Below, piece after piece: positions 4,501 to 64,000 of a stretch of 64,000 bases of DNA; the first letter of the stretch is position 1; each line of letters begins with the position of its first letter. Source of the stretch: Schmidtea nova (taxonomy: Eukaryota); assembly GCA_044892505.1 (NCBI GenBank), contig CM097883.1:228966001-229030000 (forward strand), given 5' to 3'. The notes below the pieces were generated by a model. The model saw only the letters and a program-made list of their open reading frames with translations, was not told the DNA's origin and did no database searches. Made by a program: the position numbers and the translations under genes.

Positions 4501-6517
4501 TCTTGTAACGTATAGGATGCTCCGGAATTTCATAGTTTATTTATGAATTTGGTAGACCAACGATTTTCTTTAATCGATGATAATGTTATCAAAAGCCTTA
4601 TTAGTGGAACATTCAGATATTTGACAAGGTTTAATTGATTTTTGCTTTTTATTATTTTAATTGGCTTCGATTGATAGATGCAAGGGTTGTGGTTATGAGT
4701 CACAAATGAATTGTCAGTTTAGGGAAATAGATTTGAAACCCATGCTGTCTTTCGATCAAGCACTGCTAGATTTTTTGAAGGTAATACATTACATTTATTT
4801 ATCATTATTGCTATTATTATTAATATTATTGTTATTATTAATATTATTATTATTAACCGCAACTTATTTGTCGGTGGAATCATTCGGTAAATCAAAAGAC
4901 ATAAAATTTTAATCCAATTTTTATTTCACTACAATAAATTGTTTATTTATTTTAAATTGTCTTCACTTTCAATTATTTAAACAAACTTTTTTAATCAAAT
5001 GATCAAAATAACAATTCAATAAATTTCATTTAATTTTTTCAAAATAGAAATTTCTTAAATGACAATAAAAATTTTATAAAAATTTCACAAATTTTTATAA
5101 ATTTCCACTTATTTCCGAATTGCCATTTTAANNNNNNNNNNNNNNNNNNNNNNNNNNNNNNNNNNNNNNNNNNNNNNNNNNNNNNNNNNNNNNNNNNNNN
5201 NNNNNNNNNNNNNNNNNNNNNNNNNNNNNNNNNNNNNNNNNNNNNNNNNNNNNNNNNNNNNNNNNNNNNNNNNNNNNNNNNNNNNNNNNNNNNNNNNNNN
5301 NNNNNNNNNNNNNNNNNNNNNNNNNNNNNNNNNNNNNNNNNNNNCTTTGATCTTTTTTATTATTATTATTATCAATAATTCTCATAATGACTAGATCAAA
5401 AATTTTTTTTATAAACAATAACACAATATTTCGGCTCAGCCTTTATCAAGTGTGTATACCCACTTGATAAAGGATGTGCCGAAATATTGTGTTATTGTTT
5501 ATAAAAAATTTTTTGATAATAATATATATATAAATATATATATTATTATAATATTGTGTACTTATTTAAAGAAATTTTGACCTATAGTCATCCATTATGG
5601 GAATTATTGATATTAATAATAAAAAAGATCAAAGGTNNNNNNNNNNNNNNNNNNNNNNNNNNNNNNNNNNNNNNNNNNNNNNNNNNNNNNNNNNNNNNNN
5701 NNNNNNNNNNNNNNNNNNNNNNNNNNNNNNNNNNNNNNNNNNNNNNNNNNNNNNNNNNNNNNNNNNNNNNNNNNNNNNNNNNNNNNNNNNNNNNNNNNNN
5801 NNNNNNNNNNNNNNNNNNNNNNNNNNNNNNNNNNNNNNNNNNNNNNNNNNNNNNNNNNNNNNNNNNNNNNNNNNNNNNNNNAATTCTCATAATGACTATA
5901 GATCAAAATTTTTTTTTATAAACAATAACACAATATTTCGGCACAGCCTTTATCAAGTGTGTATTTCTATCGTTATATTTACTTAATCCTAAATAGTAGT
6001 CTTAATTATTTTTTTAATATTTTATAATGATTTTATTGGATGAAAAAATTTATTTTAATTTTTTTGTGCGAATTGAATGTTGATGGACAGTTTGTATTTT
6101 TTTATGAAAAAAGTCTCGGAAGCTAATCTTTGTAATGAATTTTTTAATCCCTCTTGTAGAATCTGGCATTTTGTTTCTTCTATAGATGGAGTTGTTTTAT
6201 GTACTTTCTCCCAGTGTTCGTAATAATTACTGGTTTTGATTTTAGTGTGTTCATTAAGTCGGGTGCGAAAAGTTCTATGTGTTTCTCCTATGTAAGTAGC
6301 GTCACATCTTTGGCAAGAAAGTTTATATACTATATTTTTGGAAAAGCAAAAGCATCGGGTTGTGGAACGGCAAAGACATTTATGTTTGGAGATGTTGGAA
6401 ATTGGTGGCTTTCGGAGTTGTGATTTTAACGGTGCGGAGGTTATGAACGTTGGACGGATGTGGATAGGCAAATCTGTTTGATTAAAAATGTTGGTGATTT
6501 TGTTGGCTGTAGTGTAA

Positions 6518-40789: not shown

Positions 40790-42176
40790 GAAAGCTGTAA
40801 GGGGTATTTACCCTACTTTTATATAAACCTGAAATATATACATAAAATCGAATTTAATATCTTAATCTCAATAAGATTTTAATCTATTTTTTTTACGATC
40901 GATGAAACTTTAAATTTCGTATTATAGTAGAATCATTGTGCATAAGATTTACGATTCGGGATATACCAACTAAGCTTGAAATTATTTAATCCTGAATCTG
41001 TTTTTAATTATTCGACATTTCTACATATTTATAAAATAATTCAGCAATTGAGATCCAAATACTGGTAATATCGATATAAAGTGGAATTTAATTAAGATCC
41101 AATTATATACGGTGTATTATATAGATCTGGATTTGGTGAGATATCACTCGGATGTTTAATATGTAAAGCGCAAAATTACTTTAGAATACGACTTTTGAGC
41201 ATACAACCAAAGGGGACGAAATGAATATCACCGAATTCGGCAACTATCAAACAATAAATAAAGATTTTATATAAACATCGAGAATCTAATATCTTTCCGA
41301 CAACTACAATTATTTTACTAGCCATTTCAACACGATTACTATTAATTGGCTGTTGTAATATACTTTTAACGATATGCAACATGATGTTTTCTGGCAATTC
41401 GTTTCCAAGATATAATTCCGATAATAATTATATATGTAAAATTAGATAATATTTATTTCAATATAATACAATAGAACAGACTTTTGACTTAATATATGAT
41501 TGAAATATTTTTAAAAAGATCTAAATTTTTTTTATTTTTAGTGAAAGTCTTTTTAGTCAATTTTTTTTCAAATTCATCTGAATGTAGTTAATGTTTGCAT
41601 CATAATCTTCTATTTTAGGATTTTTTTAGACTTTTGTTGTGTTTTGTCATTAATTTGTTTACTGATGTTTCTCATTACAAATTTTTAATTCACGTCGTGT
41701 GCGGTGTCTGAATTATTCTGTTCTCACTATTATAATTCGTGATCAAAATTTTTATTTGTTATCTCTTAGCAAAAAAATTACGACTTAAGAGTGCTGGTGT
41801 GTTGGTTAGATTGACAACTGAGATCCTTATGATTTTATATGTTAGGGTGATCTCGCCAACATAAAAACATTTCCCCGCTGACACCCATGATGTATCCCTA
41901 ACTACTCATCATGTTGGTGCTGTGTCAACGTTGTGAAATGACAAGGCAGGTGAGCAACCTTTCGGCTACTATTCCCTTGTTTATTCACGGGTCCACCACT
42001 ACCGATAGAAGGTGTCTGTGGCTTTCTTTCGGTCCCACTTATGCTCTTTACTTTGCTCTAGGGTTGATTCAATGTTATTACATCTGCGGCTTTAAATGAA
42101 TCCGAGTTTTAGTTATATTCCATTCTCAGTCATTCCACAAACAAACGAGACAAGTCAAATCATTCATTTTATACAT

Positions 42177-42776
42177 TTATTTGTAGTTCAACAATACAGA
42201 GGGTCGGATTACATTTAGTAGTTCTTGCTCGGATAGACCACTGAGCAAGTCTACCTCTATTCCTACGCGATCTGCATAGGCGCGTCTTTCCCTGCGCTTT
42301 TTCGCTCCTAAGCGATTCCGTCTCTTTGTGCGTTGTGAGCCTGCGGGAATTGTATTTGTCACTGTAGTAGCCGTGGCTATGGTCGATGCATTCTCTGTTT
42401 GGGTGCTCGTAGTCACCGCTATCGTGTCTATCCATCGATTAAAGGTGCTAGCCCTGATTACTGGGCGTAGTTGTTCGGTGATGAAGTCGCGGGTCGATGC
42501 CTTCAAATAATTCGCCAACTCCAATTTCAGGGCTGCAATCTCTCTGGCATGTTCCTCAGCTACTCGTTCTGCCCTGTACCTAGCCTGCAGGATGGACTTA
42601 ACCCGCTCTGGGTTAAACCAGGTAGTCTTAATCCGCTGATGCTCCTCATTCAGCTGCCTTAATCGATTCTCCAGCACCCGTGCGCGCGCCTTGTGTTCTC
42701 GCGCCTCTTGCTTGAAGTCTCTGCCCTTGGGTTCCGTCATGTCTGTAAATATATCATTAATGTTAGTATATGTCAT
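42177..42776 (-). CDS. LTR-region ORF, 199 aa: coiled coil, Thr-rich linker, Arg/Lys-rich basic stretch
   Basis: Intact ORF with QRTKRRNRLGAKKRRERR; AATAAA overlaps the stop codon. Confidence 0.7.
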   Translation of the reverse strand: MTYTNINDIFTDMTEPKGRDFKQEAREHKARARVLENRLRQLNEEHQRIKTTWFNPERVKSILQARYRAERVAEEHAREIAALKLELANYLKASTRDFITEQLRPVIRASTFNRWIDTIAVTTSTQTENASTIATATTVTNTIPAGSQRTKRRNRLGAKKRRERRAYADRVGIEVDLLSGLSEQELLNVIRPSVLLNYK

Positions 42777-42931
42777 GTGTCTGATTTTTCGGTCATCCTA
42801 TCGTCATTAAACAACTCCGTTCTATCATCATATTATTTCCATGCGCTCGAAAGAAAAACAAAACAAGACCGTTTTCACACAAATACATATATTTTGTAAC
42901 TACGACAATCATTCTCTCTCGGCTGCGACCA

Positions 42932-43567
42932 TCAACTGAAGGCCCTCAAGTCCTGATCGGCAGGATGCTCGTCGCGACGAATTCCATTCTCCCAATACAT
43001 TTCTGGGGCTGGGGTCCAACTCAGCTTATCTTTGTAGATAAACACCTCCCAGAGGCGAAGCTCCTCGGACTCGGGGTGTTGTTCCACGGACACACTTCCT
43101 GGTGCATTGGAATAAGTGAAGACTTCCTCAGTGTAGCGACACCGAGGCCTGTCTAGCAGCAGGTATCCTAATTGGAAAAGAGCCCTTCCGGTCATCATTC
43201 CATTGCTCAATACCCAGCGGGGTCGTCTCTGCTCGTCGAGAAATTGGAAGAACCATCTATCGGTCCTTGGTTCGGCAGGGTCCATGGTGGACATCCAATC
43301 GGGGTCTCCTTCCCATCGTAATTGTATCGTGAAGGCGCAAGCCGGAACATCTGCGGCTGCACTCATATGGTGTCTTGTCCACCGCCGTAGGTGGCGACGC
43401 GCAGTTTCGCTAATTCTGCGTGGGGCTTCCATTTCTCCCTCGATGGTAAGGATCCTCCTTGGCCGGACGACGGAACGGATGCGTCGTGGTTTCCGGACGA
43501 CATAATCTTCCATTTTCATCTGTCGATAGGTGCTCGGACTTCTTTGATATTCTTCGGTCTTTATCAT
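42932..43567 (-). CDS. LTR-region ORF, 211 aa: Arg-rich N-terminus, Trp-rich globular C-terminus
   Basis: Intact ORF; strong splice acceptor cttcttgtcttcag 4 nt before the ATG. Confidence 0.7.
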   Translation of the reverse strand: MIKTEEYQRSPSTYRQMKMEDYVVRKPRRIRSVVRPRRILTIEGEMEAPRRISETARRHLRRWTRHHMSAAADVPACAFTIQLRWEGDPDWMSTMDPAEPRTDRWFFQFLDEQRRPRWVLSNGMMTGRALFQLGYLLLDRPRCRYTEEVFTYSNAPGSVSVEQHPESEELRLWEVFIYKDKLSWTPAPEMYWENGIRRDEHPADQDLRAFS

Positions 43568-44619
43568 TTTTCTGAAGACAAGAAGATGTGATTGTGATGA
43601 ATTTGTTAGGTGCGTGCAATTATTTATAATCGGCGACCTACTCGACTCAAGAGTAAGACTCTGTGGGTTGCCGTTGGTGTTTCAGTGTTAGATCGGTTCG
43701 ATGTTCAAGATAGTGGGTAGGTTGTATATTATCGTCATGTGGTTGAGTGTATTCACTATGTCAAGTTGCTTAACTGATTTGGCCACGCAAAAAATTCAGT
43801 TCAGTTTATGACAATCTGTATTCATTTATGATGATCACTTGATCATTTATTATATTAGAATGTCATCATTTCATAGACCATTTTGGTTTATATCTACAGC
43901 AATCATACTCACTCGCATCTCAGGTGTTATCTCCATACCTAATTTTCAATTAACAATGGTCACATCATCCGGGGAACATGTTCGACCCCTTACTCAGGTT
44001 AATTGGGTACAGATTGTGCTTGTATTATATTTCGTGGGACTATCCTTTGTACCCTTCGTGAGGCGTATTTATGTTGGGGCATCCTGTGGATTCATGGTTT
44101 TACTCCGACGCTAGCACTGTCAGCCTCTGAACTCACCTGCCTCATGTAGTGTATATCTCCATACTAACCCTTTGCACCAAACCGTCGTTACTCTACTTGA
44201 CTTCACGAACGCGGAACACTTCCTCGTCGATCAACCCGTCTTTTATGTAAACTCCTTTACTCGATGTTGTCGGGACAGATGATACGCCCTTCAATTACTT
44301 CTACCCATCCTGGGGTTATGATGACCTGAGATATCCGATGTGCCCTTCCCCCTTCCGCTTGTTAAATATTTAGAACACTTATGGTCCCGCCGCATCAGCA
44401 CCTCACAACCTAAAGATTGTGTTGCGCTGAGAGGCCCCAAGAATCCGTCAGGCTGTTAGGCCTCCGGAAAACCTTATAGATTTTATTATGGTTAGCAATT
44501 ATAATTATGAGGGTTTAAAAGACTAATACAACTTGAATTACCTTTTATTTATTTCCAAATTGGTTTCACAATGTTCTCAGTAGTCACAAACAATTCACCC
44601 TTGGTAAAGATAACATTGT

Positions 44620-44680
44620 CAAATACTGATTTGACTTCAGTATTTATACTCCACCGGTGTTGTTGGTTAGCCAATCAGCA
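44620..44680 (-). promoter_or_regulatory. Candidate LTR promoter
   Basis: ATTGG/CCAAT box 44671-44675, TATAAATA 44648-44641, TCAGT initiator-like 44629-44625 (TATA-Inr spacing slightly short). Confidence 0.5.
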
Positions 44681-45049
44681 TCGAGTATGTGTGTATGTTT
44701 GCTTCATTATTTTGTGTTGTCGGCTTTTTGCTGCCTAACTTAACTTGCCGATTTGTTTGGTTAATCATGCGGTAAGTTTTTCTTAGTCATCAATTTATTT
44801 TATTTTATTTTTGTTTTAGGTCTTTGGTGACATCCGCCCACGCGCTGTCATATTCCAATTTTATCTGCTTCGCATGAGTAAGTTTTGAAGATTTTTGTTG
44901 TTTTGATTAATATTTTATTTCTTTTAGATGTTGCCGCCTATTTTGTTACGCTTTGGTGTTGGTAATTTATTTTGTTGTTATTCTGTTGTAAATTTATTTT
45001 ATTGATTGTATATTATTTTCAGATGCTGCTCGATTTGGCTGGCCCAACA

Positions 45050-45254: not shown

Positions 45255-45779
45255 TCAGGTCCTTTCACTTGTTGACTGCATTTCGTATCGGGCTTGGATT
45301 TGTCGTAGATGGCTTCTCATTCTTTGTTGGGTTTTTGCTTCTCTTTTGGCACATCTACACATTATCATTTGTTGTTGTTTGAGGCTTCTGATTCGATATA
45401 GGGTATAGGTAATCACGATGATCAGGATGATTGTTAATATTGTCATTGTGACTATTCCGACGATGATCCATCTGTTTCGGATTTCGGATTCGATTTGGGT
45501 TTGACCTTTGATTGGCTTTAGCTGATCTTGGAATGTTTTATGGATTTCTCGGATCTTCTCGATTTGATCGAATAGGGTTTGTAAGGGTTTGCGATGATCA
45601 TGACTGATTCGCATTTGTCGGATTAATTGTTTCAAGTCTTCTCTGACTTCATTTAGTTGTTTTTCGATCTCCTGGGATATTTCATTTGACAGGGTTCTTT
45701 GAATTTCGGTTGTCGAACAGTTCATGATTGTTATGGTTAACATAGTTGTTAGGATTGGTAGGGTTTTGAGCCAGTTCAT
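45255..45779 (-). CDS. Accessory type I membrane protein, 174 aa
   Basis: Signal-peptide-like N-terminus, heptad-rich ectodomain, TM WIIVGIVTMTILTIILIIVITYTLY, basic Cys-containing tail. Confidence 0.75.
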   Translation of the reverse strand: MNWLKTLPILTTMLTITIMNCSTTEIQRTLSNEISQEIEKQLNEVREDLKQLIRQMRISHDHRKPLQTLFDQIEKIREIHKTFQDQLKPIKGQTQIESEIRNRWIIVGIVTMTILTIILIIVITYTLYRIRSLKQQQMIMCRCAKREAKTQQRMRSHLRQIQARYEMQSTSERT

Positions 45780-45852
45780 TTCTGATTATTCTACTGATTA
45801 ATACCTGTTACATCGATTTGTACATTTTTACACACGGATTTTTCGCCTCTTT

Positions 45853-47025
45853 TTACACATCCGTCTCCTCTGGTTCATGAAACCCTTCATCTTGGAGCTC
45901 CATTGGTGGTGGTGGTATAAACGGTAACCACACCACTCTGCTTCTCCACATTGCAATTTCATCTTGATACGTTCGAGAGATTTGTATCTCTTCATCTAAC
46001 AGATACTCCATATAGTCTGATTGTTCGCTCAGAGTTTCAATTTGTCTTTCCATCTCTTCCACTTTTCTCTTCATGTCTTCTACTTCTGTTGGTTCGGTTT
46101 CTACTTCTGTGGTTTCTTTCTCTGCTTTCAGGGTTATTATCTGCTGTTTCAGTTCCTCATTTTCTTTCGTCAAATTCGTTATATTCTCCTCGTAAGCTCG
46201 GTTTGATTCCGCATGTCTTTCCTTCACAGATTTCAGTTCCATTTTCTTTTGGGTCACCACCCCTTGATAACCATTTACATCTCTTTCCAGACTTTCTTTT
46301 TCCCTGATCAACTTTTGTCTTTCCGCTTCTTCTTTTTGTCTAATGCCTCGCATTTCTTCATTTATCATCTGTATTTGCCATTGCGTTTTCTTTAGTTCCT
46401 TTGCCTGTTCTCGAATAATTCGCTGTCGTTTTCGACTCCATTCCTTGTTTGTCTGTTCTTGTCGTTTTCTCTGTTCCAGTTCCTCTTTCAATTCGTCTAT
46501 CTCTTGATACAATTTCCAATCTTCGCTGTATGCTGTCTTTCTGATTATCTCTTTGGCTTCTTTATGCACTCGTTTCGACTCCATCTTCCAATGTCTCGCT
46601 TGAGCCTTGATTGCTAGTATTTTTACCTCCATCTTTTCCTCTTGTTTCTCCTGCTCTTCTCTTCGCGTTTTCATCATATTCCGGTAGTGTTCAGCTTGTT
46701 TTCTCATCAACTGATAGACCTCTTCTATCTTCAGTCGACTTCGTACATTCGTTCCTTTTAGCTTCTCTATTTGTGTTGTCAGTTGTACTATCTCTTTATT
46801 CACTTCCTCGAGTTCTAGTTGGTATAACTCCATTCGTCTCTCGCATTTTAGTTTCTCGTAAAAATTGTTCGTCATCACTTCGTGTAATTCTCTGGTTCTT
46901 TGTTCTACTTCCACTTTACATCTCCTTTCGATTTCTCTTTCGATTTCTCTTTCTATTGCTTCTTGTTCGTTTGACATCTCGTTTCTCGTTTCATCTTCGA
47001 TTACATGTGCATTTGCGTTTTCCAT
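45853..47025 (-). CDS. Accessory long coiled-coil protein, 390 aa
   Basis: E/K/R/Q-rich heptads throughout; ends ...PPPPMELQDEGFHEPEETDV. Confidence 0.8.
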   Translation of the reverse strand: MENANAHVIEDETRNEMSNEQEAIEREIEREIERRCKVEVEQRTRELHEVMTNNFYEKLKCERRMELYQLELEEVNKEIVQLTTQIEKLKGTNVRSRLKIEEVYQLMRKQAEHYRNMMKTRREEQEKQEEKMEVKILAIKAQARHWKMESKRVHKEAKEIIRKTAYSEDWKLYQEIDELKEELEQRKRQEQTNKEWSRKRQRIIREQAKELKKTQWQIQMINEEMRGIRQKEEAERQKLIREKESLERDVNGYQGVVTQKKMELKSVKERHAESNRAYEENITNLTKENEELKQQIITLKAEKETTEVETEPTEVEDMKRKVEEMERQIETLSEQSDYMEYLLDEEIQISRTYQDEIAMWRSRVVWLPFIPPPPMELQDEGFHEPEETDV

Positions 47026-47114
47026 TCTGTAATTTACAAATTTACACTTGTTATACTATACGTTTATTGTTGTCGTCGATTTTTACACTTTATTTACAGG
47101 GTCGTTCACTCTGA

Positions 47115-48527
47115 CTACTCTAACCATCCTTTCGTTGACTTCGTGTTCATCACTGTTGTACTTGCTTTCTTTTCGATCTCCAACTCTACATATAAGTTGT
47201 CGTCGTACAACATCTCCCACATTGTTTGGTGTGGTATGAATTTTGGTTCTCCAGTCGCTAATGAACATTCTGTGGTTGGTCTTTTGTAAGCTTCGTGCTT
47301 ACCATCAATTTTGAATACTCTCGCTATTGTTTCTTTCGAGTTTTTCACTCTCATTATAGCCTTTGTTTCTAGTGGCCATTCTAATATGTCGTCGTAACCA
47401 CCTTTACACAACGCAAAGAATAATGACACATGCGTTTCTTTTCCTGATCCATCTCCATTTGGATAAATTCTCATCCGGACTTTGTATCCGTTTTTCCACA
47501 GATAAAATGGTGGACTTGTTACCGACACTTGACTTCCTGCTTTTGCTGCTGCGAACTTGTCGTTGAAGTTCTTGATTTTCCATACATATGGTGCAACAGG
47601 TAAACTCTCGATATCCTCTGTATCTCGTATCCACATTTGGTGTCGTACATTTACTTCCTTTACTAATGTCTCTATGACTTTGATTTTCTCCATCATTTTC
47701 TCTCTGGTGAGCTCGAATTGTTCTCTTGTTTCTAGTAATAACTCCGTCATTATTCTCTGAGATTCGATTTCTTTTCCCAGCTTCTGTATGGTTTGTTCCA
47801 TTCCGTTCAAATTTGCTGTTAACATCTCGGCGTGTTGTACTGTTTCCGTTTCCAAATGCTCTTTCATCTCTTTGCTCGTTTTCTTTACTACACATCCTTG
47901 TTTACTCCATACGCACTTTCTTGGTCTTGATTCGCATTGTTCCCAATGTTCTCTCAACATCACTTCTTCTCCGGTTCCGCAATTACTTGGACAAATTCCT
48001 CGGAATTTTCCGCACACTTTTTCTTCTGCTACGTTGAGATGTTCTGTTTCGATTACTTCTCTCGTCTCTCTTTGTTCGCAGTATTGACACTCTATTATCT
48101 CTGCTTTGCACTCGTCCTTGTGATTTTTCGACTGCTTGATGGTTATCGTCTGTTGACACTTTTCACATATCGCTTTCTTGTTTTCGCATTTCTCCAGATG
48201 TTGTCTTAGCTCGATTATTTGTCCTTTCCATTCACATGGTTGGTTTATACACTCTGTTTTTATCTTCCAGATCTCCTTTTGTATTGCTTTGTCTGGTTTT
48301 GTTTCGTTGATCAGTAGTTTATCGTCACACTCTGGACACTTTCTTGTCTCACTTTCACTGATTATTTGCAATATACACTTGGTGCACATCCTGCATCCAC
48401 ATTCCGTTTGCCTCGGTTTTAACAGTAGATTTTTACACTTTACACACGTCACATTTACTCCCCATTGTCGATTTTCTCCTCTTAGAGTTTCGATCGTTTG
48501 GTAATCTGCTTCGCTTTCTGCTCTCAT
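47115..48527 (-). CDS. Intronless TRAF-family protein (RING, TRAF Zn fingers, coiled coil, MATH), 470 aa
   Basis: RING CVKC..PRQTECGCRMCTKC..CPEC; CINQPCEWKG; MATH YVWKIKNF..SPPFY..GYKVRMRIYPNGDGSGKETHVSLFFALCKGGYDDILEWP. Confidence 0.95.
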   Translation of the reverse strand: MRAESEADYQTIETLRGENRQWGVNVTCVKCKNLLLKPRQTECGCRMCTKCILQIISESETRKCPECDDKLLINETKPDKAIQKEIWKIKTECINQPCEWKGQIIELRQHLEKCENKKAICEKCQQTITIKQSKNHKDECKAEIIECQYCEQRETREVIETEHLNVAEEKVCGKFRGICPSNCGTGEEVMLREHWEQCESRPRKCVWSKQGCVVKKTSKEMKEHLETETVQHAEMLTANLNGMEQTIQKLGKEIESQRIMTELLLETREQFELTREKMMEKIKVIETLVKEVNVRHQMWIRDTEDIESLPVAPYVWKIKNFNDKFAAAKAGSQVSVTSPPFYLWKNGYKVRMRIYPNGDGSGKETHVSLFFALCKGGYDDILEWPLETKAIMRVKNSKETIARVFKIDGKHEAYKRPTTECSLATGEPKFIPHQTMWEMLYDDNLYVELEIEKKASTTVMNTKSTKGWLE

Positions 48528-48617
48528 TCTACAACAATATTTACATCAATTTCCCCATATTTTTGATTTTTTCTGGTTCTTTATTTACACGTATTTACAC
48601 AGTTTTCCGCTTATTCA

Positions 48618-48968
48618 CTATACATCCTCAGTTGAATCTGGCTCTGGATACACGTCTATCTCATTTACAATCCAGCTCGTCCAACTATCCGGTATTTCTT
48701 CCTCTTCATGTCTCGTTAATCGGTCAATTTCCTCTGCTTGCCAGTTGTTCACTTCATTTAATGTTCGGTTCTCGTTCTGTAATTCGTTTATCTGTATTTG
48801 TTGGATCTCGATTTTGTTCATTGCTTCGCAATTACAGTTATAACTCTCGGTTAATAATTGCGTTTTTGCCGTCAACTGGCTCTGTAATTCATTTACTGTT
48901 CTGGCTAGCAGGTCACATTGTACTTTCCATCTTGTCATCGTTGACATCTCGATATTTTCTTGGTTCAT
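48618..48968 (-). CDS. Accessory short coiled-coil protein, 116 aa
   Basis: Heptad repeat plus acidic Trp-containing tail ending EPDSTEDV. Confidence 0.65.
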   Translation of the reverse strand: MNQENIEMSTMTRWKVQCDLLARTVNELQSQLTAKTQLLTESYNCNCEAMNKIEIQQIQINELQNENRTLNEVNNWQAEEIDRLTRHEEEEIPDSWTSWIVNEIDVYPEPDSTEDV

Positions 48969-49091
48969 TGTTTTTCTAGATTATATACATCATTCTCTTT
49001 TTTCTGTTTTTATGTTTTATAATATTTATACCCATACGTATACGGTTATGCATTGGTTTTTACACTATTATTTACACTCATATTCCACCCT

Positions 49092-52000
49092 CTATACCAC
49101 TATTACTGGTTTTCCTTCGTACAGTTCCTCGTCCTCGATCTGTACCCACATCTCTTCGTGTTTTGATCGTCTTTTTAGCTCTTCTCGTACTTCTTTTGGT
49201 AGTTTTATGTTGTAATTCGTGACCTTTACCTCTGGCCATTTTACTGCTATGGTCTTATTTCTCATGCCATATCTCCAACATACTATCATGATCGTTATCA
49301 GTGGTATACACGCTATGAATACTCCCATGCTGATTAATCCCATTACTGTTTTTCCAATGCTCATTCTTGGAGTCTCACTTTGGTTTATCATCACGCCGTA
49401 TTGACCTTTCCATTCTGCTTCCCATTGTTCATATTGTTGTTGTCTCCGTCTGACTTCTTCGATCACTTTCTCTGGTTCCCATTTTTCTTGTCGATTTGGT
49501 ATTGTTTCTTCCTTCTCGTTTTGTTCTCTCTTCTGACTCAATTCTCGGAATTCTAACTTTTTGATTCTCCTCTTTATCGGTGTGTAGTAGGTTTCGCACC
49601 TTTCTTGTGGATTTCCTTGTGTATCCACTTCTTCAATTGCACACACTACGTATTCTGCATTTGTTTTCAACTTCCTCATTTCTACCTCGATTGTTTCCTT
49701 TTTGTCATTTGATGTCTTTTGACAGTTTCGTGGAGACTTTCCCATACTGTTTGGCATTAATGTCCAACAGATTTCTAGGACCTTTTTATGGATCTTCCAT
49801 ATTATCAGAGTCGTTGATTCTGGTTCGTTTTCTATTGTCGTCCCTTCTGTTGTCTGTTGAGTTCCTTGACTGTTGGTTGTCGTGGTTCTTCTTGACTTTC
49901 TTTTCTTCTGCCGACTTCCTCCCATTTCGATCGTTCTTGTACCGTTAATTTGCTCTGGCGTCTTGTACAGTCTGCACTCCAGGCTTCTTTGTATTACTTC
50001 TCTTATTCTTCGGATTACGCAAATTTCGTAAGCTTGTCCGACTTCGAATCCATTTAGTTGAAACGGGATTCCTCGTTCTCTCGTTTTACATTGCGGTATT
50101 ATGTTGTTGGTCGATACTCCGATGTATTTTCTCCAACACATCCCAATTGTTCTCCGACCAATGTTTTTTATCTCCACTGTTACTACTTCATTTGCAATCG
50201 TTTCTTGATCTTGTTTCTTTCTTTTTGGGAACTCAATTATCTCCTTTGTTTGGAACACTTTACACTCGCTTGTTCCTGGTCTGTTTCCGTTTGCTGCTTT
50301 TTCCATGAGACATAGTTCACATTTTCTATCTGTATCTATTTCGGTTATCTCAATTTCTTCGTTTGTCTCTGCTTCTCGACTTTCTCTTGTTTCGCTGATT
50401 CCAATTACCTCATTGTTTCGTCCCCAACATCTTCCATTCGTTGTTCGTTGATCTTGGATGTTTACTAACGTCATCACGCTGATATCTATGTCCTCCATGA
50501 TTCTCTTAATGAGGATTAATATTAATGCTACACATATCAATTCTGGTTGGAATGTTAATTTGCCCGCTGGATTTTTGGTTATTCTTTCTTTCTCTGTTCG
50601 GTTTCTGATTCCCTCTTCAACTTCGGTTTGATTCTTCCCTTTCTCTGATTCCACTTCTGTTCTTCTCGTTGTCTCTTCGCTTCTTTTCTCAATCCATTTC
50701 TGTATCTTCAGCGCTTCCGTTGCTTTGTATAATTGGCATGCAGTTACTTGAGGTGCTTTTGGTTCTCCTCTCTGCTTTATTGCGCATATTATGTATGACT
50801 TTTCTTTCTCCAATCCTTTGATTTGGATGACGTCTCGCTTCAAATCTGACAATATACACTTCAGCGTATCGTTTTTCTTCAGGTTTTCTTTCCAGCATAT
50901 TCTTTCGTATACTTCATTTCCTCTGATTATCTCTAGCGTGACGTATTGTTTCTTGGCTTCTCCTTGTCCGATGATTGTTATCAATATCGCAATACACAAC
51001 ATTTCCGGTCTCAAAAGTAGACTTCCTGTTCGTTTTCCATAGTTTGTACGTTCGTCTTTTGTTCCATTGTTTTCTCGTTCTTCTGCTTCTCTTTTCTTGT
51101 CGTTTCTCGTTGGCTTCGGTTCTTCTTGTCTTTCTTTTTCATTATCCTCCGTTCTTTTGTTGTCATTGTCTTCGTTGCTCTCTTCGTTGTTGCTTTTGTC
51201 GTCGAAATCTCTGTAACCACCCCCTGGTCCTTTCGAAATGTCGTCCTCGACATTAATTTCTTCAATCAATCTTTCATACGCTTGAACCGCGAGTGTGCTA
51301 GACTCGAATTCACGTATTTCCATCTCCTTGGATGGTTCTATGTCTTTTAATCTACTTTGCTTGATCGCTTCTTTGGCATTTGCCCATTCATTCACATATT
51401 TTCTGAACAAGTCTTTCCATCTTCCTATTCGTTCCTGTTCCTTTGGATTGTTCGTGAATTTCAAATCTCTTCTCTTCAGGAATTCTTCTACTATCTCTGG
51501 CTTTTTGTGTCTCAATAACGCGCTTCTGATACACCAATTCTGATTCTGTTCCATATTGTCATTGATCTTGAATGCCGGTTCCTTGGTGATCGGATTCACC
51601 CATGTTAGTAATGCTCTCGTTTTCTCTATGTCGTGTATCATTACTGTTAGACTGAAGTTCTTTACGTTATTCACCAGGTATTCGATATCGTCTTGCTTCT
51701 TGATGGACTTTATGAACTTGATCATCTCGAAGTTGTTCCACTGTATTGCGATGTCTATGATGGAATTATTCTTTCCATTTTTCCCTTCGATTTTTGCTCC
51801 TGCTTCGTATAATTCATTTAGCACTTTAAAGTTCGTCTTCTTTCTTGCTGCGATTATCATGATTGTATCTCCGTTATCATCAACCGTATTCATGTCCGCT
51901 TCGCATTTGACCATTGCTTTCGTTATTTCTAGCACTTCGTTTTCTTTCTTTCGACGTAATGCCCAGTGTATCGGCAATCTCCCATCCTTTGATAATAGGA

Positions 52001-56408: not shown

Positions 56409-56690
56409 CAGGTCAGTTCCAATAATACATGGTACACTCAGCGATGGTATTACACGATGTACGTGTTGATCTCTGCACCTCGATGCTTAATTTTTACAAA
56501 CCATCTTCCGGCTACTTCTACTGTCTCTTGACTGCACGCGATTACATGTACGTTCGTCTTCTCAATTTCTCCTTGGTTTTTCTCGGGTATATAGTTAATG
56601 TCGATTGCCGAAATATTCGCGCCTGTATCGATCATTGCTTCGATTTCTCTTCCATTTATTTCTATGGTTGTTGTTAAAATCGGTCCCATA
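56370..56690 (-). other. Retroviral-type aspartic protease split across the ORF1/ORF2 junction
   Basis: IEINGREIEAMIDTGANIS (DTG at 56621-56629) in ORF1; C-terminal IPSLSVPCIIGTDL in the pol frame. Confidence 0.92.
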
Positions 56691-59600
56691 TTTGTGGACA
56701 TAACTGCTATCGTGTGCGTGTCTTCTAACGAGTTTACACTTCCACCTCGTTTTACTTTGCATCCCTCTGGAATTATCGGGTATATACTTGTCATCGGCAT
56801 CATCTGCATCATATTCGGCTTCGCTTTGTATATCGGTTCGTTATACATTGACTGAGGTGGAGCACTGTATCTCCAATTCTCAACTGCACTCTTTTCGTTA
56901 TACTGTGGAATCTGGTTTATATTCGCTTGTCCTCCTCGATCGTCATCGTCATCGTCGTCGTTACTTGAATCATCCTGCGTTCGATATCCTCTCACTCTTT
57001 CCCATAATCCTTTCCTTTCTTTCTTTAGTTGTCTTCTTGCTTGCTCGTCTTGCATTATCTTTTTGAATTTCCTTCCGACATCTTCGTTTGTTCCTTTCAT
57101 TTTTGCAAGTATCTTCAACAACCTCTTTATTCGATGTATGTCTTTTGAGTGTCCGTGTAACACCATCGTTTTCGCAAGGAATGGTAAAAATCCTACTACC
57201 ATTTTCCAATTCACTTTCTTTTCTCTCTTGTAGATGTCGAAACACGCTAACATTTGCGTTATTATCACTCTGACGATTTGTATTATCAATATAACACCCA
57301 GTATTCCCGCCATCATTTGTCCAAATATCAGGAATCTTCCCCACATTGCCTTCATCATATTTTCTGTGGCTTTCTTGAAATGTGCCGGTGACAACAACAG
57401 TTCGTAATTCGGTCCTTCTCGATAATTCGTTCCTCCCGTTATCGTTACGATATTTGACAGTAATGCTTCTCTTCTTGCCGGGAATAATATATTCTGCCTT
57501 GCTGCTTCCAGATCTTTTGGACTATAGATTCCGTTGTTTGAGACATCTACGTCACTGAACTGTCTATCCTTTGACAACTGCATTAGCTCAAATTCTCTTG
57601 GTGCTAATACTTCAGTTCTTCCTGGGAACATAACCCATTTGCCATCTGGCTTCTGATAAAGCGGTCCGTACGCGTTACTACAGTTGAATGGATTTGGTTC
57701 AAAACTTGGTGGATTGATGATTCTCGTCACCGGTTGAACATATCGTACTTTTCCTTTGTAATCGATTTCTAGTTCGTTTGTACATTGTCCAGGTTTCAAC
57801 TGCGTTGTTGCTGCTAGCGATGCGTGTGTCTTTTCACAAATGTATACATACATTGCCTCTCCAACCACTCTTCCGAAATGTCCTTCTCTCAGTGGTAATA
57901 ACGGCATCGCGCTATCTGGATTCGTAATCGCTACGGCCAACTTTGTCTTTAGTATTTCCCGATTCAGTATACAATCGTTGTTTATCAGATCATAATACAC
58001 TTTTTGCAATGAGGCTTGTCCTCTATGGAATAAGAAATCCATTTTATTATTCACATACAAGTGTAACTTGATATCCATTGTGTCGATCTTGGGTTTCGCA
58101 TTCGGCACTTCCTGCTTTGACACGTATATTCCTGGATAATTTGTTTCGTATACTGTTGTACTGCACTTAAGGGTTGCTTTCCCTTTTATGAATCTCATTC
58201 CCACATCCTGATTTGTGGTTATCAACACTGTTGGTGTGGCTCTCATCTCTATTCGTTTTTCTCTATGATCTGGTCTCAATTGTCTTTTGTTCTCTAAAGC
58301 TTCTTTGAGATGTTTTGCTCTAGCTTTGTCATCATCGTCCTCTTCCTGGAACGTTTTTCCTTGAATTTCGTCGAACTTTGCTCCTTGTAGCAGTTGTAAT
58401 TGACACTCGTTCACTTTTGGTTTGTATACCAATGTTGACATTCCCGTTTGACACATGCTCCTGTCAATTTTACACATGGATAACGTTTTCATTTCTCCTG
58501 TGGTCGGTTCGAAGAATGCTTCGTAGCTTTTCAGTTCGACTATATACGTATCCATTACCACTAAGTTGGTTGCAGGTACTCCAAATATCGGGTAGGTTTC
58601 TCCTTGACAATATCCTTCTCCTCCCGTAATCCGTCCTGCTACATAATACGTCTGCTGTAACATCATTCCTGGTTTTCCTTTTATCTTGATTTTATCTCTC
58701 GTTGTTACTTCTCCATGCTTGAATAATGCTTCACAGTCTTCTCCTTGCAACACGATTGGTTCTCTTTCTGTTCCTGGCATGACAATTGCTGAATAATGTC
58801 CTCTACCACAATAGAATGCGAATCTCGTCTTTTGTACTTTGCATTCATTCACCATTGTCTTTATGAGTTCTGCCTCTTGATACACGTGGTACCATTGTTC
58901 CTTTTTAATCTCTTTTAACTCTACTGGAGTTGCATCTTTGCATTGCTCCGTACCTCTCAATGAGTACTTTTCTCCTAACTTCATTTGATCACAATCAAAT
59001 ACTTCGAACGTTGTTACACCCTCTGTGCTTAACAACCATACTAGCATCATCATGATTATCGAGTTTAAATTCAACGTCGATCTTCCGTTTCCTTGCATCG
59101 TTTGTCTATTCTCCATTTCTCTCAATACTCCTTCGAGTTTCTTTCTCATCACGTTAGACCCTTCTTTTGTCTGGTTCTCTTTTATGAACTTTTCCCATCC
59201 TCCTTTCCTGAGGATATATGGTTCAATTTCTTTCTCGATAATCATCGCCGTATTTTTAATATGTCTTCCCATCGGACTTGACTTCGGACTTCCTCGGCTT
59301 AGCGTTAGTAAATTGTATATCGTATACGAGATTGCTACCAGATATTTGCTGTCCGTTTCTGCTCCGTTAAGTAGCCTTTTTATCAACATCGTGGTTCCTT
59401 GCCAATCCAGATGATTCGATTTTGTTTTTGCCTTTATCAATTCTGGCATAATCGGTGCTATTGCATTGTGTAGCATCCTTGCCTTTGTACTAGGTTCGTT
59501 TATCCGCCACAAATTCTTTAATTCCGGGTCAATTATTGCTAACACATCCATTATCGTTTTGGTGAGCCATTCTTCTCCTTGGCAGACTTGATTCTCTTCT

Positions 59601-62600
59601 TTTCCTCTGATCTCTGCGATTTTATCCAGTTTCTTCAAGCAAATCTCCCATTGCTCTTGTCTCCTTTCTTCCCTTGTTTTTGGAATTGTTGTTGCTGGAT
59701 CTATCTTTGGTCTTCCTCTTGGTCGTTTTTCCATTCCAGTTCCGGTTTCCACAAATCTCGTTGCTCTTCCCGTTTCTTCTGTAACATCTCTTCCTTCGTT
59801 CGCTCGCTGTTCTAACCATCTTTCCATTTCTTGAGTAAACTGTGGTTGTTCTTGCTCGTCTTCTGAATCGTTTACCATTTCTATGACTACCTCCTGTTCC
59901 ACTCCTTGATCGTCGATTTCTGCTGGTGACGTTATTGGCATCTCTATTATTCTGTCAAAAATATTCGCCGTTGGTTTTTGAGTCAACTTCGTTAGTTCTT
60001 CTATCGCCTCATCACTATCTGTTAGTATCTCATCGACGTCATACGCTTCTGGCGGTGTTCTCTCTCTCGTTTTTATTGGTGTTGTCCTTGCTTGTCCCGA
60101 ACTTGTTCCTGGGGTCATTGTTGACTTCATCGGACTTGGTGTACTCATGCTTCCTTTCGCTTTCTTTTCCTCTTTAAACTTCAGTGGTTGACCCACTATT
60201 TGTGCCACTGTTAGCGTATTCATTAGATCCAATTGCACTGGTGTCAGCCAGATTTCCAAATTGTTATCCAACGATCGTCCTTGATGTTGCAGGTGGAATG
60301 GTAGTTCGTACATCAGTTTCTCTTTAACACTTTTCACTTTTTCGGTTAGCATCACCCAAAACTCTTCTTTTCTCTGATTCGGATACATTATCCTCAAATG
60401 TATTTTCTGTGGCGTTTCCTCCGCAAACTCTTTGTTTCTCCACTTTTTTATTACATCGTCTAGTTGCTCTGGACACCACTCGTTTACTCTCTTGTATTCT
60501 GCTATCGCTTTAGCTACTTTTCGCAAGTTCGTCATGTCTTCTCCATTTGAGATTATGAATTGTGCTAAGCCTTTTATTGTTTGTCTTTTCCCCCGAGTAT
60601 TTCCTCTCAACAGCTCGATCAATTCACTCGTTTTCTGTTTCTCCAATTCTGCCCATATTACTGCATTTTCTGGTCCGTCTAAGTCCGTTGGTAATATCCT
60701 CCTTGTTACCATACATATCCGTTTCGTATTCCGTTCATATCTGTCTTCTCCTTCCGGATCTTCTTCATACACGCCTCTTTTCACTTTCCAACATTTCTCT
60801 TTGTTATCCCATTGTTTCTCTACTGGCGTCAATCGTCGTCTGTTAAGATCCAATTCTCCCAATATTGTCTCCCATTCTGGCTTCATCTGCCAGTTCCGAT
60901 AGATTTCTACTATCTGCCTCAACTTACGCATAACGTCCTCTTGTCGTTTCTTTCTCCTTTCTTCATCTTTTGTAGTTATCCTCGGCACATCATCCATTCT
61001 GATGACGTGTATTGTCTGATAATTATCCCATATGCCGATTTTATACGCTCGTCTTTCGTCACGTTCGTTCAGTAGATGTTCTTTGTATTTTATAGCGATG
61101 TCATCCTCGAATTCATCTTCCCGTTCTCGTTGTAATATCGTCTCATTGATGACATCTACTATTTCTCCCACTTTACTATCTGGTATTACCTCAATTTGTT
61201 TTGTCTCTTCGTTTGGTAATCTCACGGTAATCTTCAGATCTGATACCTCTCCTCGTTTAAACATTTCTTTCCCCATCTTGGCGATTAACTTATCCGTTTT
61301 GAAATTTGAGTGTCTCGTTTGACTGGTGTCTCGTATATTCTCGATACACTGTTTCAAATTCTCATACTCGCTTTTCGTCAATTCCTTTCGATGTTTCTTG
61401 ATTTGTTGGATGATCTGTTCTATCATCGTATTCAAATTCTCCGCCAAGATTCTTTCTTTTGCCTCTACCAACTGAGGTTTTATTCTCATCTCGTAACACG
61501 TATTCGCTTCTTTGACGATTCCTTGTAAGTTCTCTTCCTTTTTGGTGTTGCATATAGATAGCGTTGTTATTTCTCCTGGCCATATGCCTGTGTCTATCAT
61601 ATGCGTTCCTTTTCTCACCAATCCGTTTTCCGAATATATGAATTTGTCTTTGTACGAGCTTCCCAATCTGTCTTCAACCCATCGGTAAATTCCATCCGTC
61701 ATTGGGTTCCTTATCCAGATTCTCGGTGAACACTCGTTTATCCATATTTGTATTACGTATTCGTTGAGTGGTTCTTTCAATAACTTCTCTATGAACTCCT
61801 GTATTACCCTCACTTCTCTTTCTTGTAACCACTCTTTATACTTCATTTGCCATACTGCTCGTATAAACTTTCGGTATCGTTTCCTGTCGATAAACTCCTC
61901 GTTATGGATTACTTCTAACGCATTATCCATCAGCTTCTGAATTTCGTCTTCCTTTACTGACATCGTTTCTATCGTCTCGACTACTTCCATCTTTTTATCC
62001 ACGTTTTCCGGTTCCTTTAGCATGTCTCCTGCCAGACTGCTAACTTCGCTGTCGTCTTCTTCATCTGACAACTCTTGTCTTGGGTGTCTCAGCATCCCAA
62101 TATGTGCGGTTGGCCTCGCTTCGTTTTTGCTAGCTTCTTGTATTAGTTCATTCTCGTTTCCTGTTACTTCAGCTTTTCCCATTCTTTTCTCCAACTCGTC
62201 TATTTCTTCCAACCGTCTTCGTCTTATTTTTCCCTTGAATATTCGACTGATCCGGGTTTGATGTTTCACTGGTGGTGGGATTTTCTCCGGTTCCACCTCT
62301 CTGATGATCATCACGTTTATTTTTGTCTCCGTTACTCCCATATCTTCCCATATATCAGTCATCTTTAACTTCACTTCCGGTAAATCTTCTGTTTGTAGGA
62401 AGGCTTCTCTGGGCAGTTTCGTCACTCCCGGAATCATCTCGTTTACTTTATTGAACAATCTTCCTACTTCTTCTTTTACATCGTATTTGAATCGCCACAC
62501 GTGATCATTCGGCATGATCACCAACATTCCTCTTTGTTTGACTCTCACTTCCTCTTCTTGATTCGTTTCTTTTTCTGTTTCTTTTTCTGTTTCTGTTTCT

Positions 62601-63985
62601 TTTTCTACTTCTTCCACTTTTTGATTCTGCTCTGTAGTTTCTACTTCCTGATTCACTTCTTCTTGTTTCTGCTCTTCATTTCTTTTCTCTTTAACTTCTA
62701 ACTCGTCTGACTCATCCTGCTGCTTCTCTTCCATCATTGCTCGCATCATGTTGATCCTTGGATTTCCCTTTTTTAACTGTTGTAACCGTTGCTGTCTGAC
62801 TTGTTCTTCCTCTCGTCGTATTCTGGCCCATTCTTGATTATGTTTCTGTTGACTCTCTCTGTTTTCTCTTTCGGCCTCAGCTTCTATTAACTGGATCATG
62901 TTTATCTTTGGTTGAGCAGCTTGCTGGCTTCCCTTTGCCATGCTTTCGATTATCTCGTGTAATCTGGATACCTCCTGTCTCAACTTAGCTTCTTTCATAC
63001 TAGCTTCGTTTGCACTGCTGTTTGGGTTGTTCCGTTGTTGACCTTGATTCCCATAGCTTGGTCGATTCCCGTAATTCGGTCTATTTCCACTGTTTGCCCA
63101 ACTTCTCTGTTGATTACAGTCTTTTGACATGTGTCCGGTTTTTCCACATGTGTAACACGTTTTCCCATAACATCGATTCTCTGAGTGACCTTTTTGTCCA
63201 CACAGTTTGCAGGCTACATTCTGAAAACAATCTTGTTGCCAATGTCCGTTCTTTCCACACGTCTGACATTGCCTATTCTGCCTGTCATTGTAACTGTTTC
63301 CTCCATTCGTGTTTACTGTGATATATCCATTATTTTTCCTCGCTGGCGGTTCTTTGAACAATCTCTGCGAATGGGGGATACTTTGATTCATGTTTCTTTT
63401 TCCTTGTTCTTCGTCTTCTGTTGTTTTTCCCATTACCGCCGTAATTCTCATGTCATTCATTGCCATATGCAATTCGAATAGGTTGGCTGCTTCCAACGCT
63501 TCATCTACTGTTTTACATCCTTTGCATCCCACTTGTGCTCTGATGTCAGGTCTCCTGAGACCTCGTACGAATAACGCTGTCATCAATTCTTCGTCTACTG
63601 GGCTTCCTCTATTGAATGCCAGTTTCGCCAACTTTCTTAATTCGCTTGCGTACACCGCATTTGACTCGTTTCTCCTTTGTTTTCTTGCTGAGAACTCATC
63701 TAACGCTTCGTTCAACACTTTATTTATCCCAAACGTCTGTTGGAAGAACTCCTTGATTGCTTCCCACGTTCTGGGTGGATTACTTCCCGATCTCTTCTCA
63801 ATATACAGATCCAATGCGCTATCTTTCAAGTATAGCGGGATTCGATTTGCTAACGTTTCTGCACTCCATCCGCATATATCCACGAATATGCCAAATTCCT
63901 TTAGAAACGTGTCCAATCTACTGGCGTCTCCATTGAATGGTTCGCCCTTGAATTTTTCTCTCAGATCCTCTCTGTGTTCACTCAT
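56450..63985 (-). CDS. gag: ORF1, 2511 aa: Gag, cargo domains, glycoprotein (env), aspartic protease N-terminal part
   Basis: Retrotransposon gag (PFNGD..FLKEF..W..LYLKDSALDLY..W..KQRRNES..Y..EL), three CCHC knuckles at 63116-63268, and MIDTGANIS near the C-terminus. Confidence 0.95.
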   Translation of the reverse strand: MSEHREDLREKFKGEPFNGDASRLDTFLKEFGIFVDICGWSAETLANRIPLYLKDSALDLYIEKRSGSNPPRTWEAIKEFFQQTFGINKVLNEALDEFSARKQRRNESNAVYASELRKLAKLAFNRGSPVDEELMTALFVRGLRRPDIRAQVGCKGCKTVDEALEAANLFELHMAMNDMRITAVMGKTTEDEEQGKRNMNQSIPHSQRLFKEPPARKNNGYITVNTNGGNSYNDRQNRQCQTCGKNGHWQQDCFQNVACKLCGQKGHSENRCYGKTCYTCGKTGHMSKDCNQQRSWANSGNRPNYGNRPSYGNQGQQRNNPNSSANEASMKEAKLRQEVSRLHEIIESMAKGSQQAAQPKINMIQLIEAEAERENRESQQKHNQEWARIRREEEQVRQQRLQQLKKGNPRINMMRAMMEEKQQDESDELEVKEKRNEEQKQEEVNQEVETTEQNQKVEEVEKETETEKETEKETNQEEEVRVKQRGMLVIMPNDHVWRFKYDVKEEVGRLFNKVNEMIPGVTKLPREAFLQTEDLPEVKLKMTDIWEDMGVTETKINVMIIREVEPEKIPPPVKHQTRISRIFKGKIRRRRLEEIDELEKRMGKAEVTGNENELIQEASKNEARPTAHIGMLRHPRQELSDEEDDSEVSSLAGDMLKEPENVDKKMEVVETIETMSVKEDEIQKLMDNALEVIHNEEFIDRKRYRKFIRAVWQMKYKEWLQEREVRVIQEFIEKLLKEPLNEYVIQIWINECSPRIWIRNPMTDGIYRWVEDRLGSSYKDKFIYSENGLVRKGTHMIDTGIWPGEITTLSICNTKKEENLQGIVKEANTCYEMRIKPQLVEAKERILAENLNTMIEQIIQQIKKHRKELTKSEYENLKQCIENIRDTSQTRHSNFKTDKLIAKMGKEMFKRGEVSDLKITVRLPNEETKQIEVIPDSKVGEIVDVINETILQREREDEFEDDIAIKYKEHLLNERDERRAYKIGIWDNYQTIHVIRMDDVPRITTKDEERRKKRQEDVMRKLRQIVEIYRNWQMKPEWETILGELDLNRRRLTPVEKQWDNKEKCWKVKRGVYEEDPEGEDRYERNTKRICMVTRRILPTDLDGPENAVIWAELEKQKTSELIELLRGNTRGKRQTIKGLAQFIISNGEDMTNLRKVAKAIAEYKRVNEWCPEQLDDVIKKWRNKEFAEETPQKIHLRIMYPNQRKEEFWVMLTEKVKSVKEKLMYELPFHLQHQGRSLDNNLEIWLTPVQLDLMNTLTVAQIVGQPLKFKEEKKAKGSMSTPSPMKSTMTPGTSSGQARTTPIKTRERTPPEAYDVDEILTDSDEAIEELTKLTQKPTANIFDRIIEMPITSPAEIDDQGVEQEVVIEMVNDSEDEQEQPQFTQEMERWLEQRANEGRDVTEETGRATRFVETGTGMEKRPRGRPKIDPATTIPKTREERRQEQWEICLKKLDKIAEIRGKEENQVCQGEEWLTKTIMDVLAIIDPELKNLWRINEPSTKARMLHNAIAPIMPELIKAKTKSNHLDWQGTTMLIKRLLNGAETDSKYLVAISYTIYNLLTLSRGSPKSSPMGRHIKNTAMIIEKEIEPYILRKGGWEKFIKENQTKEGSNVMRKKLEGVLREMENRQTMQGNGRSTLNLNSIIMMMLVWLLSTEGVTTFEVFDCDQMKLGEKYSLRGTEQCKDATPVELKEIKKEQWYHVYQEAELIKTMVNECKVQKTRFAFYCGRGHYSAIVMPGTEREPIVLQGEDCEALFKHGEVTTRDKIKIKGKPGMMLQQTYYVAGRITGGEGYCQGETYPIFGVPATNLVVMDTYIVELKSYEAFFEPTTGEMKTLSMCKIDRSMCQTGMSTLVYKPKVNECQLQLLQGAKFDEIQGKTFQEEDDDDKARAKHLKEALENKRQLRPDHREKRIEMRATPTVLITTNQDVGMRFIKGKATLKCSTTVYETNYPGIYVSKQEVPNAKPKIDTMDIKLHLYVNNKMDFLFHRGQASLQKVYYDLINNDCILNREILKTKLAVAITNPDSAMPLLPLREGHFGRVVGEAMYVYICEKTHASLAATTQLKPGQCTNELEIDYKGKVRYVQPVTRIINPPSFEPNPFNCSNAYGPLYQKPDGKWVMFPGRTEVLAPREFELMQLSKDRQFSDVDVSNNGIYSPKDLEAARQNILFPARREALLSNIVTITGGTNYREGPNYELLLSPAHFKKATENMMKAMWGRFLIFGQMMAGILGVILIIQIVRVIITQMLACFDIYKREKKVNWKMVVGFLPFLAKTMVLHGHSKDIHRIKRLLKILAKMKGTNEDVGRKFKKIMQDEQARRQLKKERKGLWERVRGYRTQDDSSNDDDDDDDRGGQANINQIPQYNEKSAVENWRYSAPPQSMYNEPIYKAKPNMMQMMPMTSIYPIIPEGCKVKRGGSVNSLEDTHTIAVMSTNMGPILTTTIEINGREIEAMIDTGANISAIDINYIPEKNQGEIEKTNVHVIACSQETVEVAGRWFVKIKHRGAEINTYIV
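57100..59070 (-). other. env: Chuvirus-like (Jingchuvirales-type) glycoprotein embedded in ORF1
   Basis: Internal signal peptide SIIMMMLVWLLSTEG, then FDC..SL..C, CKV..R..YCG..HYS, AG..G.CQG, YVNNK..LY..L..C..NR..LK..LA..NP, GEA.Y..C, C..EL..Y..QPVTRII, then WGRFLIFGQMMAGILG TM. This Cys and motif spacing is typical of chuvirus G. Confidence 0.85.
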
Positions 63986-64000
63986 CCCGATTCCACTGTC

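Follow-up and report, generated by a model that had tools for sequence, protein, structure and literature searches.

A divergent Bcl-2-fold domain predicted ahead of Env in the polyprotein of a Burro-type retrotransposon of Schmidtea nova

Mimics of Bcl-2 are familiar from large DNA viruses and are unusual in retroelements. The closest described systems are the Burro elements, giant gypsy-like LTR retrotransposons of planarians, which are about 30 kb long and have one ORF of about 5,000 aa (PMC6431247). They contain three CCHC Gag knuckles, PR-RT-RH-IN, ankyrin repeats, and MATH/TRAF, and a BCL2-like motif immediately precedes an in-frame env that resembles mononegavirus fusion proteins (PMC6431247). 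The Bcl-2-like motif of Burro elements was thus already known (PMC6431247), as an annotation only as far as the covered literature shows, and Grohme 2018 and Lee 2026 may already report part of what is described here. The IAP of Burro1 was reported, in the accessible part of the source, to protect stem cells from caspase-mediated death (PMC13465017). This finding raises the prior for death control and is no evidence about the Bcl-2-like domain.

The window was a stretch of 64,000 nucleotides of S. nova (contig CM097883.1, positions 228,966,001–229,030,000). The element had a total length of 29,457 bp, with LTR ends TG...CA, and its 5′ LTR was located in the neighbouring stretch L034. The two LTRs were identical at 3,256 of 3,258 bases, with 2 mismatches, and the window element is very young and recently inserted. 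The Pfam domain order placed env in frame between gag and pol. The window copy shifted frame near 56450–56490, which split the polyprotein into two ORFs. Other copies were open over 5,075–5,114 codons (e.g. L005, L009, and L016), many of them over about 5,080–5,090. Because many copies have one long open frame, the family uses a single Gag-to-Pol polyprotein. The coordinates of the features are collected in Table 1.

Table 1. Features of the element in the window, in the order of the coding strand (aa, residues of frame 1)
Feature	Window position	Strand	Residues	Basis
Frame 1: Gag ... Bcl-2-like domain, Env, protease	56450..64000	-		ORF list, Pfam; extends 116 codons beyond window end
Three Gag CCHC zinc knuckles	63113..63268	-	245-296	Pfam PF00098
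Possible ubiquitin-like domain (weak)	61010..61240	-	921-997	4.9 bits, profile of four sister segments
KRPRGRPK, just before helix 0	59705..59728	-		
Extra helix 0, ahead of fold	59597..59665	-	1446-1468	Model pLDDT 55-74, outside aligned range
Bcl-2-fold domain	59174..59590	-	~1471-1609	Predicted model
BH1 position TDSK (cellular equivalent NWGR), Lys at Arg position	59345..59356	-		Alignment with host genes
BH2 YILRKGGW, Tyr at first Trp position	59195..59218	-		Alignment
Internal Env signal peptide, inferred cleavable	59012..59065	-	1646-1663	Hydropathy and c-region pattern, 10 element proteins
Env fusion glycoprotein	57227..59011	-		PF24664 Monjiviricetes_fusion, E 3e-68
C-terminal transmembrane segment of Env		-	~2218-2250	Hydropathy
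Aspartyl protease in frame 1		-	2444-2491	Pfam
Frame 2: RT, RNase H, integrase, ankyrin repeats, C-terminal hydrophobic segment	49092..56486	-		Pfam
Separate TRAF-like ORF (RING, TRAF zinc fingers, MATH), after pol	47115..48545	-		Pfam
3′ LTR, 3,258 bp	41792..45049	-		Matched to 5′ LTR L034:3991-7248
4-bp target-site duplication	41788-41791			

The domain lies between the Gag region and Env. The preliminary description had set a Bcl-2-like domain at 59180–59600, which corresponds to aa 1467–1607 and agreed almost exactly with the modelled fold. The landmark residues in the frame 56450–64000 (minus strand) were LLNGAETD at aa 1543 (59374), IIEKEIEPY at aa 1587 (59242), and GGWEKF at aa 1600 (59203), followed by the hydrophobic IIMMMLVWLL at aa 1648 and the start of Env near aa 1664. 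The domain had been described as inside the Gag polyprotein. It does belong to the same Gag-to-Pol polyprotein, but not to Gag proper, as it is located about 1,170 residues past the Gag zinc knuckles. Its placement just before the env signal peptide held, with a hydrophobic stretch in the same frame in all ten element proteins.

Helices were predicted at residues 31–46, 48–54, 61–70, 74–79, 89–100, 106–124, 130–154, and 158–164 (model numbering), and the full bundle α1–α8 is predicted around a central hydrophobic α5. The first structure model was ambiguous, and the second was aligned in the fold search to Bcl-2 folds over 128–140 residues with r.m.s.d. values of 2.5–3.6. The proposed Bcl-2-like fold was backed by the model, by the fold searches, and by homology to sister domains that match the Pfam Bcl-2 family. 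The two outcomes that had been named as counting against it, a predicted structure other than the Bcl-2 bundle and the lack of a profile match, were not encountered. On the predicted model, the segment is a divergent Bcl-2-fold domain and a real feature, and by the motif tests it is no canonical pro-survival family member.

The domain segment alone had no match in Pfam, including PF00452 at the curated cut-off, no match among PDB sequences beyond one chance row (E 2.1), and none in the ESM Atlas (best 0.76) or the protein collection. A domain that is invisible to Pfam can nevertheless be read through sister families. When genome G000 was searched with PF00452, at least 33 candidates exceeded the cut-off among the 150 of 1,679 that were scored, and the window copy was not among these 150. 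Of 30 loci read, 14 were host-type genes or gene fragments, 15 belonged to the element families B and C, and the remaining locus had been misread; families D and E were found by further searches of the same genome. The order of Gag knuckles, GGW, and Env start was common to family A (that of the window), A2, B, C, D, and E, and the domain is homologous to the same slot in five sister families. The local scores against the slot of families B and C were 72 and 71, each reached by 0 of 2,000 shuffles, and without the last 20 residues they dropped to 46 (25/2,000 shuffles) and 42 (55/2,000), respectively. The identity to family E was 32% over 161 aa (E 6e-27).

A profile built from families B, C, and D only selected aa 1481–1604 as the best domain in the 2,516-aa frame and gave the window domain 15.5 bits, compared with a maximum of 10.1 in 965 scored shuffles. 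In an alignment of 15 rows, 12 matched PF00452 at E ≤ 1, the others being the window and two A2 copies. The PF00452 scores were 33.6 bits for B, 29.9 for C, 24 for D, 16.3 for the metagenome relative L088, and 13.2 for E (E-value 0.14, not the top match of E), and family B was the only one of these five relatives above the cut-off. The profile of the element-domain group matched Bcl-xL at E 2e-8. A search of 1.84 billion representatives gave ten matches. Seven were related domains, five of which shared their protein with Gag or Env; the other three were a host-type Bcl-2 protein and two chance matches. The family of the window is the most eroded end of a series, and its descent from Bcl-2-family sequences is supported indirectly, via the sister families. 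In a tree of element-type and host-type cores, in which viral proteins were not included, a single branch (100/99) separated the element-type cores from the host-type ones, a split that is consistent with one capture.

The families also differed in their wider plan. Families B, C, and D (L078, L079, and L080) had single ORFs of 2,992–3,082 aa with Gag, ubiquitin-like, Bcl-2-like, Env, PR, RT, and IN motifs, and resemble a more compact version of the Burro architecture; the Pfam scan of family B gave neither MATH nor ankyrin. The ubiquitin-like candidate of the window had no Pfam match. A near-complete TRAF-like protein was encoded as a separate ORF after pol in A and A2 (window 47115–48545, minus strand, and L082:8199–9614), and family E had a MATH domain within the polyprotein (L112 aa 1100–1244). 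The region 49092–51500 of the window (minus strand) encoded about 700 aa beyond the integrase and ankyrin repeats, with two hydrophobic stretches, repeated Cys/Trp β-type units, and a C-terminal transmembrane-like segment. The equivalent region of family E had an fn3 match (E 1.8e-6), and the module may be a captured cell-surface receptor-like one. The host Bcl-2-family genes of G000 (L036–L044 and L115) include what we take, by likeness, to be two Bak-like genes, one with an exon at L115:996–1178, and two Bok-like genes (L037 and L039).

Smaller features were located around the polyprotein. A 157-aa ORF between the 5′ LTR and gag (L034:2970–3443, minus strand) ended in a RING finger, presumably IAP-like by its appearance, and had no BIR match. 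The BIR (IAP) domain was also not matched in the nine larger ORFs of the window copy scanned with Pfam, and the RING ORF was present. Five more accessory ORFs on the minus strand (42177–42797, 42932–43681, 45255–45785, 45853–47055, and 48618–48980), two of them within the LTR, gave weak coiled-coil-type Pfam rows or none. The primer-binding site followed the 5′ LTR (L034:3973–3990), and we assume that it resembles a tRNA-Pro site. Elsewhere in the window, beyond the element, MITE-like palindromic repeats, short and with 65-nt arms, and a 49-bp tandem array were observed at positions 5375–5514, 15064–15210, 24548–24725, and 16263–18000.

The BH1 motif had been called degenerate, without NWGR, and the 23-row core alignment confirmed this, as the position reads TDSK and the basic residue alone is kept. 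In the NWGR columns of 13 element-type domains, Trp was absent from all, Gly was present in 1, and Lys or Arg occupied the Arg position in all 13. The corresponding counts in ten host-type rows were 9 for Trp, 2 for Gly, and 6 for Lys or Arg. The good BH2 match that had been claimed applied to GGW, which is intact, but not to the first Trp; the W-x4-GGW pattern was counted as present with Tyr in place of that residue. The GG of BH2 was invariant across the element rows, and A, A2, E, and P0001 had Tyr at the first Trp position. The BH3 motif is L-x-x-x-G-D, and no BH3 Asp was found in the α2 helix (model residues 61–70, KARMLHNAIA; read by eye). In the accessible part of a study of ORFV125, the BH1 Arg pairs with the BH3 Asp, Gly and Arg both count for binding, and the SPGR sequence of this protein is accompanied by about 250-fold weaker binding of Puma (PMC9027176). 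Since TDSK retains the basic residue only, the domain would keep the charge contact and lose the rest, and the motif pattern is compatible with a BH3 specificity that has narrowed or with a function that has changed.

The signal peptide of Env bears on the membrane attachment of the domain. In all ten element proteins, the first Env Cys followed the BH2 GG at a distance of 57–76 residues, and the intervening segment usually included a basic amphipathic stretch. An uncharged stretch of 11–20 residues preceded the Env Cys in these proteins, usually with small residues just before the Env start, and a linker of about 37 residues separated the fold from the hydrophobic stretch. The suggestion that this stretch could serve as a C-terminal membrane anchor was borne out in that it was in the same frame in 10 of 10 proteins, but it resembled a cleavable signal peptide and not a mitochondrial tail anchor. 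The host-type protein P0008, by comparison, terminates in a tail anchor that begins about 20 residues past GGW. With its short core, its small-residue c-region, and the linker, it would be an ER tether set by Env biogenesis. As an internal cleavable signal it would direct Env into the ER, and the transmembrane segment would return the chain to the cytosol for PR-RT-IN. The domain would thereby stay cytosolic beside the ER membrane, which makes an anchoring role plausible in the form of a temporary ER tether. In the metagenome relative L088, an in-frame stop codon (L088:2423–2425) separated the signal peptide of Env from the preceding Bcl-2-like domain, which at this one locus may represent either decay or programmed readthrough.

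The domain search in G000 gave at least 139 copies at 76–100% identity and at least 11 at 67–68% (family A2), with 150 of the 1,051 candidates scored. The fold region of the window was compared with 20 copies, sampled at regular intervals from those ranked below the top 30 and all paired with one reference, and 335 synonymous and 37 non-synonymous differences gave a pN/pS of 0.029. The values for the same copies were 0.038 for Env, 0.028–0.038 for the flanking linkers, and about 0.14 for aa 950–1310. Between A and A2, the domain had a pN of 0.147 at saturated synonymous sites, and the following linker had 0.34. The domain is under purifying selection, and these substitution counts show a protein-level constraint that is not unique to it. 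Among L001–L030, 22 other copies were 100% identical in protein over 187 aa and differed from the window at 13–24 of 495 bases, which indicates a diverse population under selection and not one recent burst. Env (57227–59011) was 98–100% identical between A and A2 (L081) with a synonymous divergence of 0.28–0.34, whereas the Gag side and protease were near saturation, mostly 0.6–0.9, with 0.85 for the domain. Recombination thus appears to have swapped the Env cassette, at breakpoints close to the signal peptide on one side and the transmembrane segment on the other.

The best explanation, to which a probability of about 0.5 was assigned, is that the predicted Bcl-2-fold domain likely stems from a single capture of a host Bcl-2-family gene by an ancestor of Burro-type enveloped retrotransposons, and is likely a pro-survival decoy that binds the BH3 helices of host death proteins, with the Env signal peptide as its likely tether to the ER. 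The internal signal would send Env into the ER lumen, and signal peptidase would cut near aa 1663. The Gag-side fragment, on the cytosolic side, would remain attached through the signal until it is released by a protease. The groove of the domain could then bind BH3 motifs in Bak-, Bok-, or BH3-only proteins of the host, which might delay the death of the particle-making cell. An anti-apoptotic role is plausible, although the Trp and Gly are gone from BH1 and α2 has no BH3 Asp.

The loss of the BH1 Trp and Gly and the lack of a BH3 Asp in α2 would also be expected if the groove had degenerated and another surface bound innate-immune or stress adaptors, alongside the TRAF-like, ankyrin, and RING modules of the element, in the manner of poxviral A52, B14, and A46. 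The TRAF/MATH and ankyrin modules of the same element favour such a signalling decoy, and A52 binds TRAF6 and IRAK2 with its groove occluded, according to the accessible part of the source (PMC2494871). The fast divergence between families points the same way, and this reading was considered unlikely but worth keeping in view. The matrix protein and the foamy-virus leader peptide provide a comparable Gag-Env link at the budding membrane, and the domain might have been co-opted for particle assembly as a membrane-proximal helical module that joins the Gag-side fragment to the Env leader. The fixed spacing to the Env Cys with its usual basic stretch, a constraint equal to that on Env, and an AT-hook-like word just upstream in several families are in line with this role. 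However, the apparently separate exchange of Env between A and A2 implies that the domain and Env need not co-evolve, the L088 locus has a stop codon between domain and signal, and the retained BH1 basic residue and BH2 GGW exceed the needs of assembly, so that such a role appeared rather improbable.

The lack of a direct family match and the strongest erosion of the motifs in the family of the window are what a functionless relic would show, if it were kept because the frame to Env must stay open. An open frame requires no amino-acid constraint, however, and the low pN/pS within the family, the pN between A and A2 at saturated synonymous sites, and the full bundle still predicted make a relic very improbable; the relic reading was largely refuted already by the protein-level constraint and the predicted bundle. 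A chance GGW in a generic helical region, joined with a fold match from a biased model, would account for the ambiguous first model, for the lack of matches to the single sequence, and for a nine-host-gene profile that gave the window domain 6.3 bits against a shuffle maximum of 5.9. Such a coincidence is scarcely credible, because the matches of A to E and of A to B and C form a chain that reaches Pfam-positive domains in the same slot, the B/C/D-only profile selects this segment as the best domain in the ORF, and the second model was aligned over 128–140 residues with r.m.s.d. values of 2.5–3.6.

The helix 0 of the window contained the BH3-like L-x-x-I-A-E, and L-x-x-I/V-A-[E/N/S] was present in 6 of 6 G000 families; the motif was spotted by eye before scoring, and amphipathic helices easily give such a pattern. 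When compared with the BH3 12-mer of the host Bak-like gene L115, helix 0 ranked 1–19 of about 3,000 windows in each of the six families and 5 of 985 in P0001. The BH3 Asp was absent from helix 0 in 7 of 7 proteins, and the distance from helix 0 to the BH1 basic residue was 78–94 residues, compared with 50 for the BH3 of the host gene L036. The KRPRGRPK sequence just upstream is, we assume, AT-hook-like, and an RGRP word occupied the same slot in A2, B, E, P0001, and P0003 but not in C or D. A doubtful but conceivable extension is a self-contained death switch, in which helix 0 would be a second BH3-like helix that fills the groove of the domain itself in the precursor and is displaced or cut by the element protease. 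One polyprotein would then supply a Bcl-2 decoy together with a BH3 mimic, at a time set by the maturation of the particle.

To the Burro annotation, the present analysis added fold support, a probable single origin, and selection evidence from a family that was recently inserted and has at least 139 close matches in the genome, and the candidate host partner suggested by the sequence comparison is a Bak-like BH3. With the pro-survival role of the Burro1 IAP, as reported in the accessible part of the source, these results open to direct test the possibility that the elements of a highly regenerative animal interfere with apoptosis at two steps.

When compared with Hydra Bcl-2-4, Bfl-1/A1, Bcl-xL, and Trichoplax Bcl-2L2, the window domain was 7–18% identical and had neither NWGR nor the α2 BH3 Asp. 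Unlike these pro-survival proteins, it is embedded in a polyprotein, is followed by a signal peptide in place of a terminal tail anchor, and has an extra N-terminal helix. The element domains formed their own clade against the host genes tested, in the tree without viral proteins. ASFV A179L, EBV BHRF1, KSHV KsBcl-2, myxoma M11L, and ORFV125 are stand-alone genes of DNA viruses, whereas the domain of the window is part of a retroelement polyprotein. The poxviral NF-κB inhibitors A52, B14, A46, and N1 resemble it, so far as the available sections of the sources describe them, in having a Bcl-2 fold without canonical BH1 and a link to TRAF signalling, and A52 and B14 are described there as having the fold without blocking apoptosis (PMC2494871). 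By published description, Burro shares with the window element the length of about 30 kb with LTRs, the ORF of about 5,000 aa, and the BCL2-like, ankyrin, and MATH/TRAF modules. In Burro1 the MATH domain is inside the ORF, as in family E (L112; RT 91% identical to that of the window), whereas in the family of the window TRAF is a separate ORF downstream of pol. The window element further differs from Burro in the RING ORF upstream of gag, which lacks a BIR match, and families B, C, and D are shorter than Burro and yet have kept the domain.
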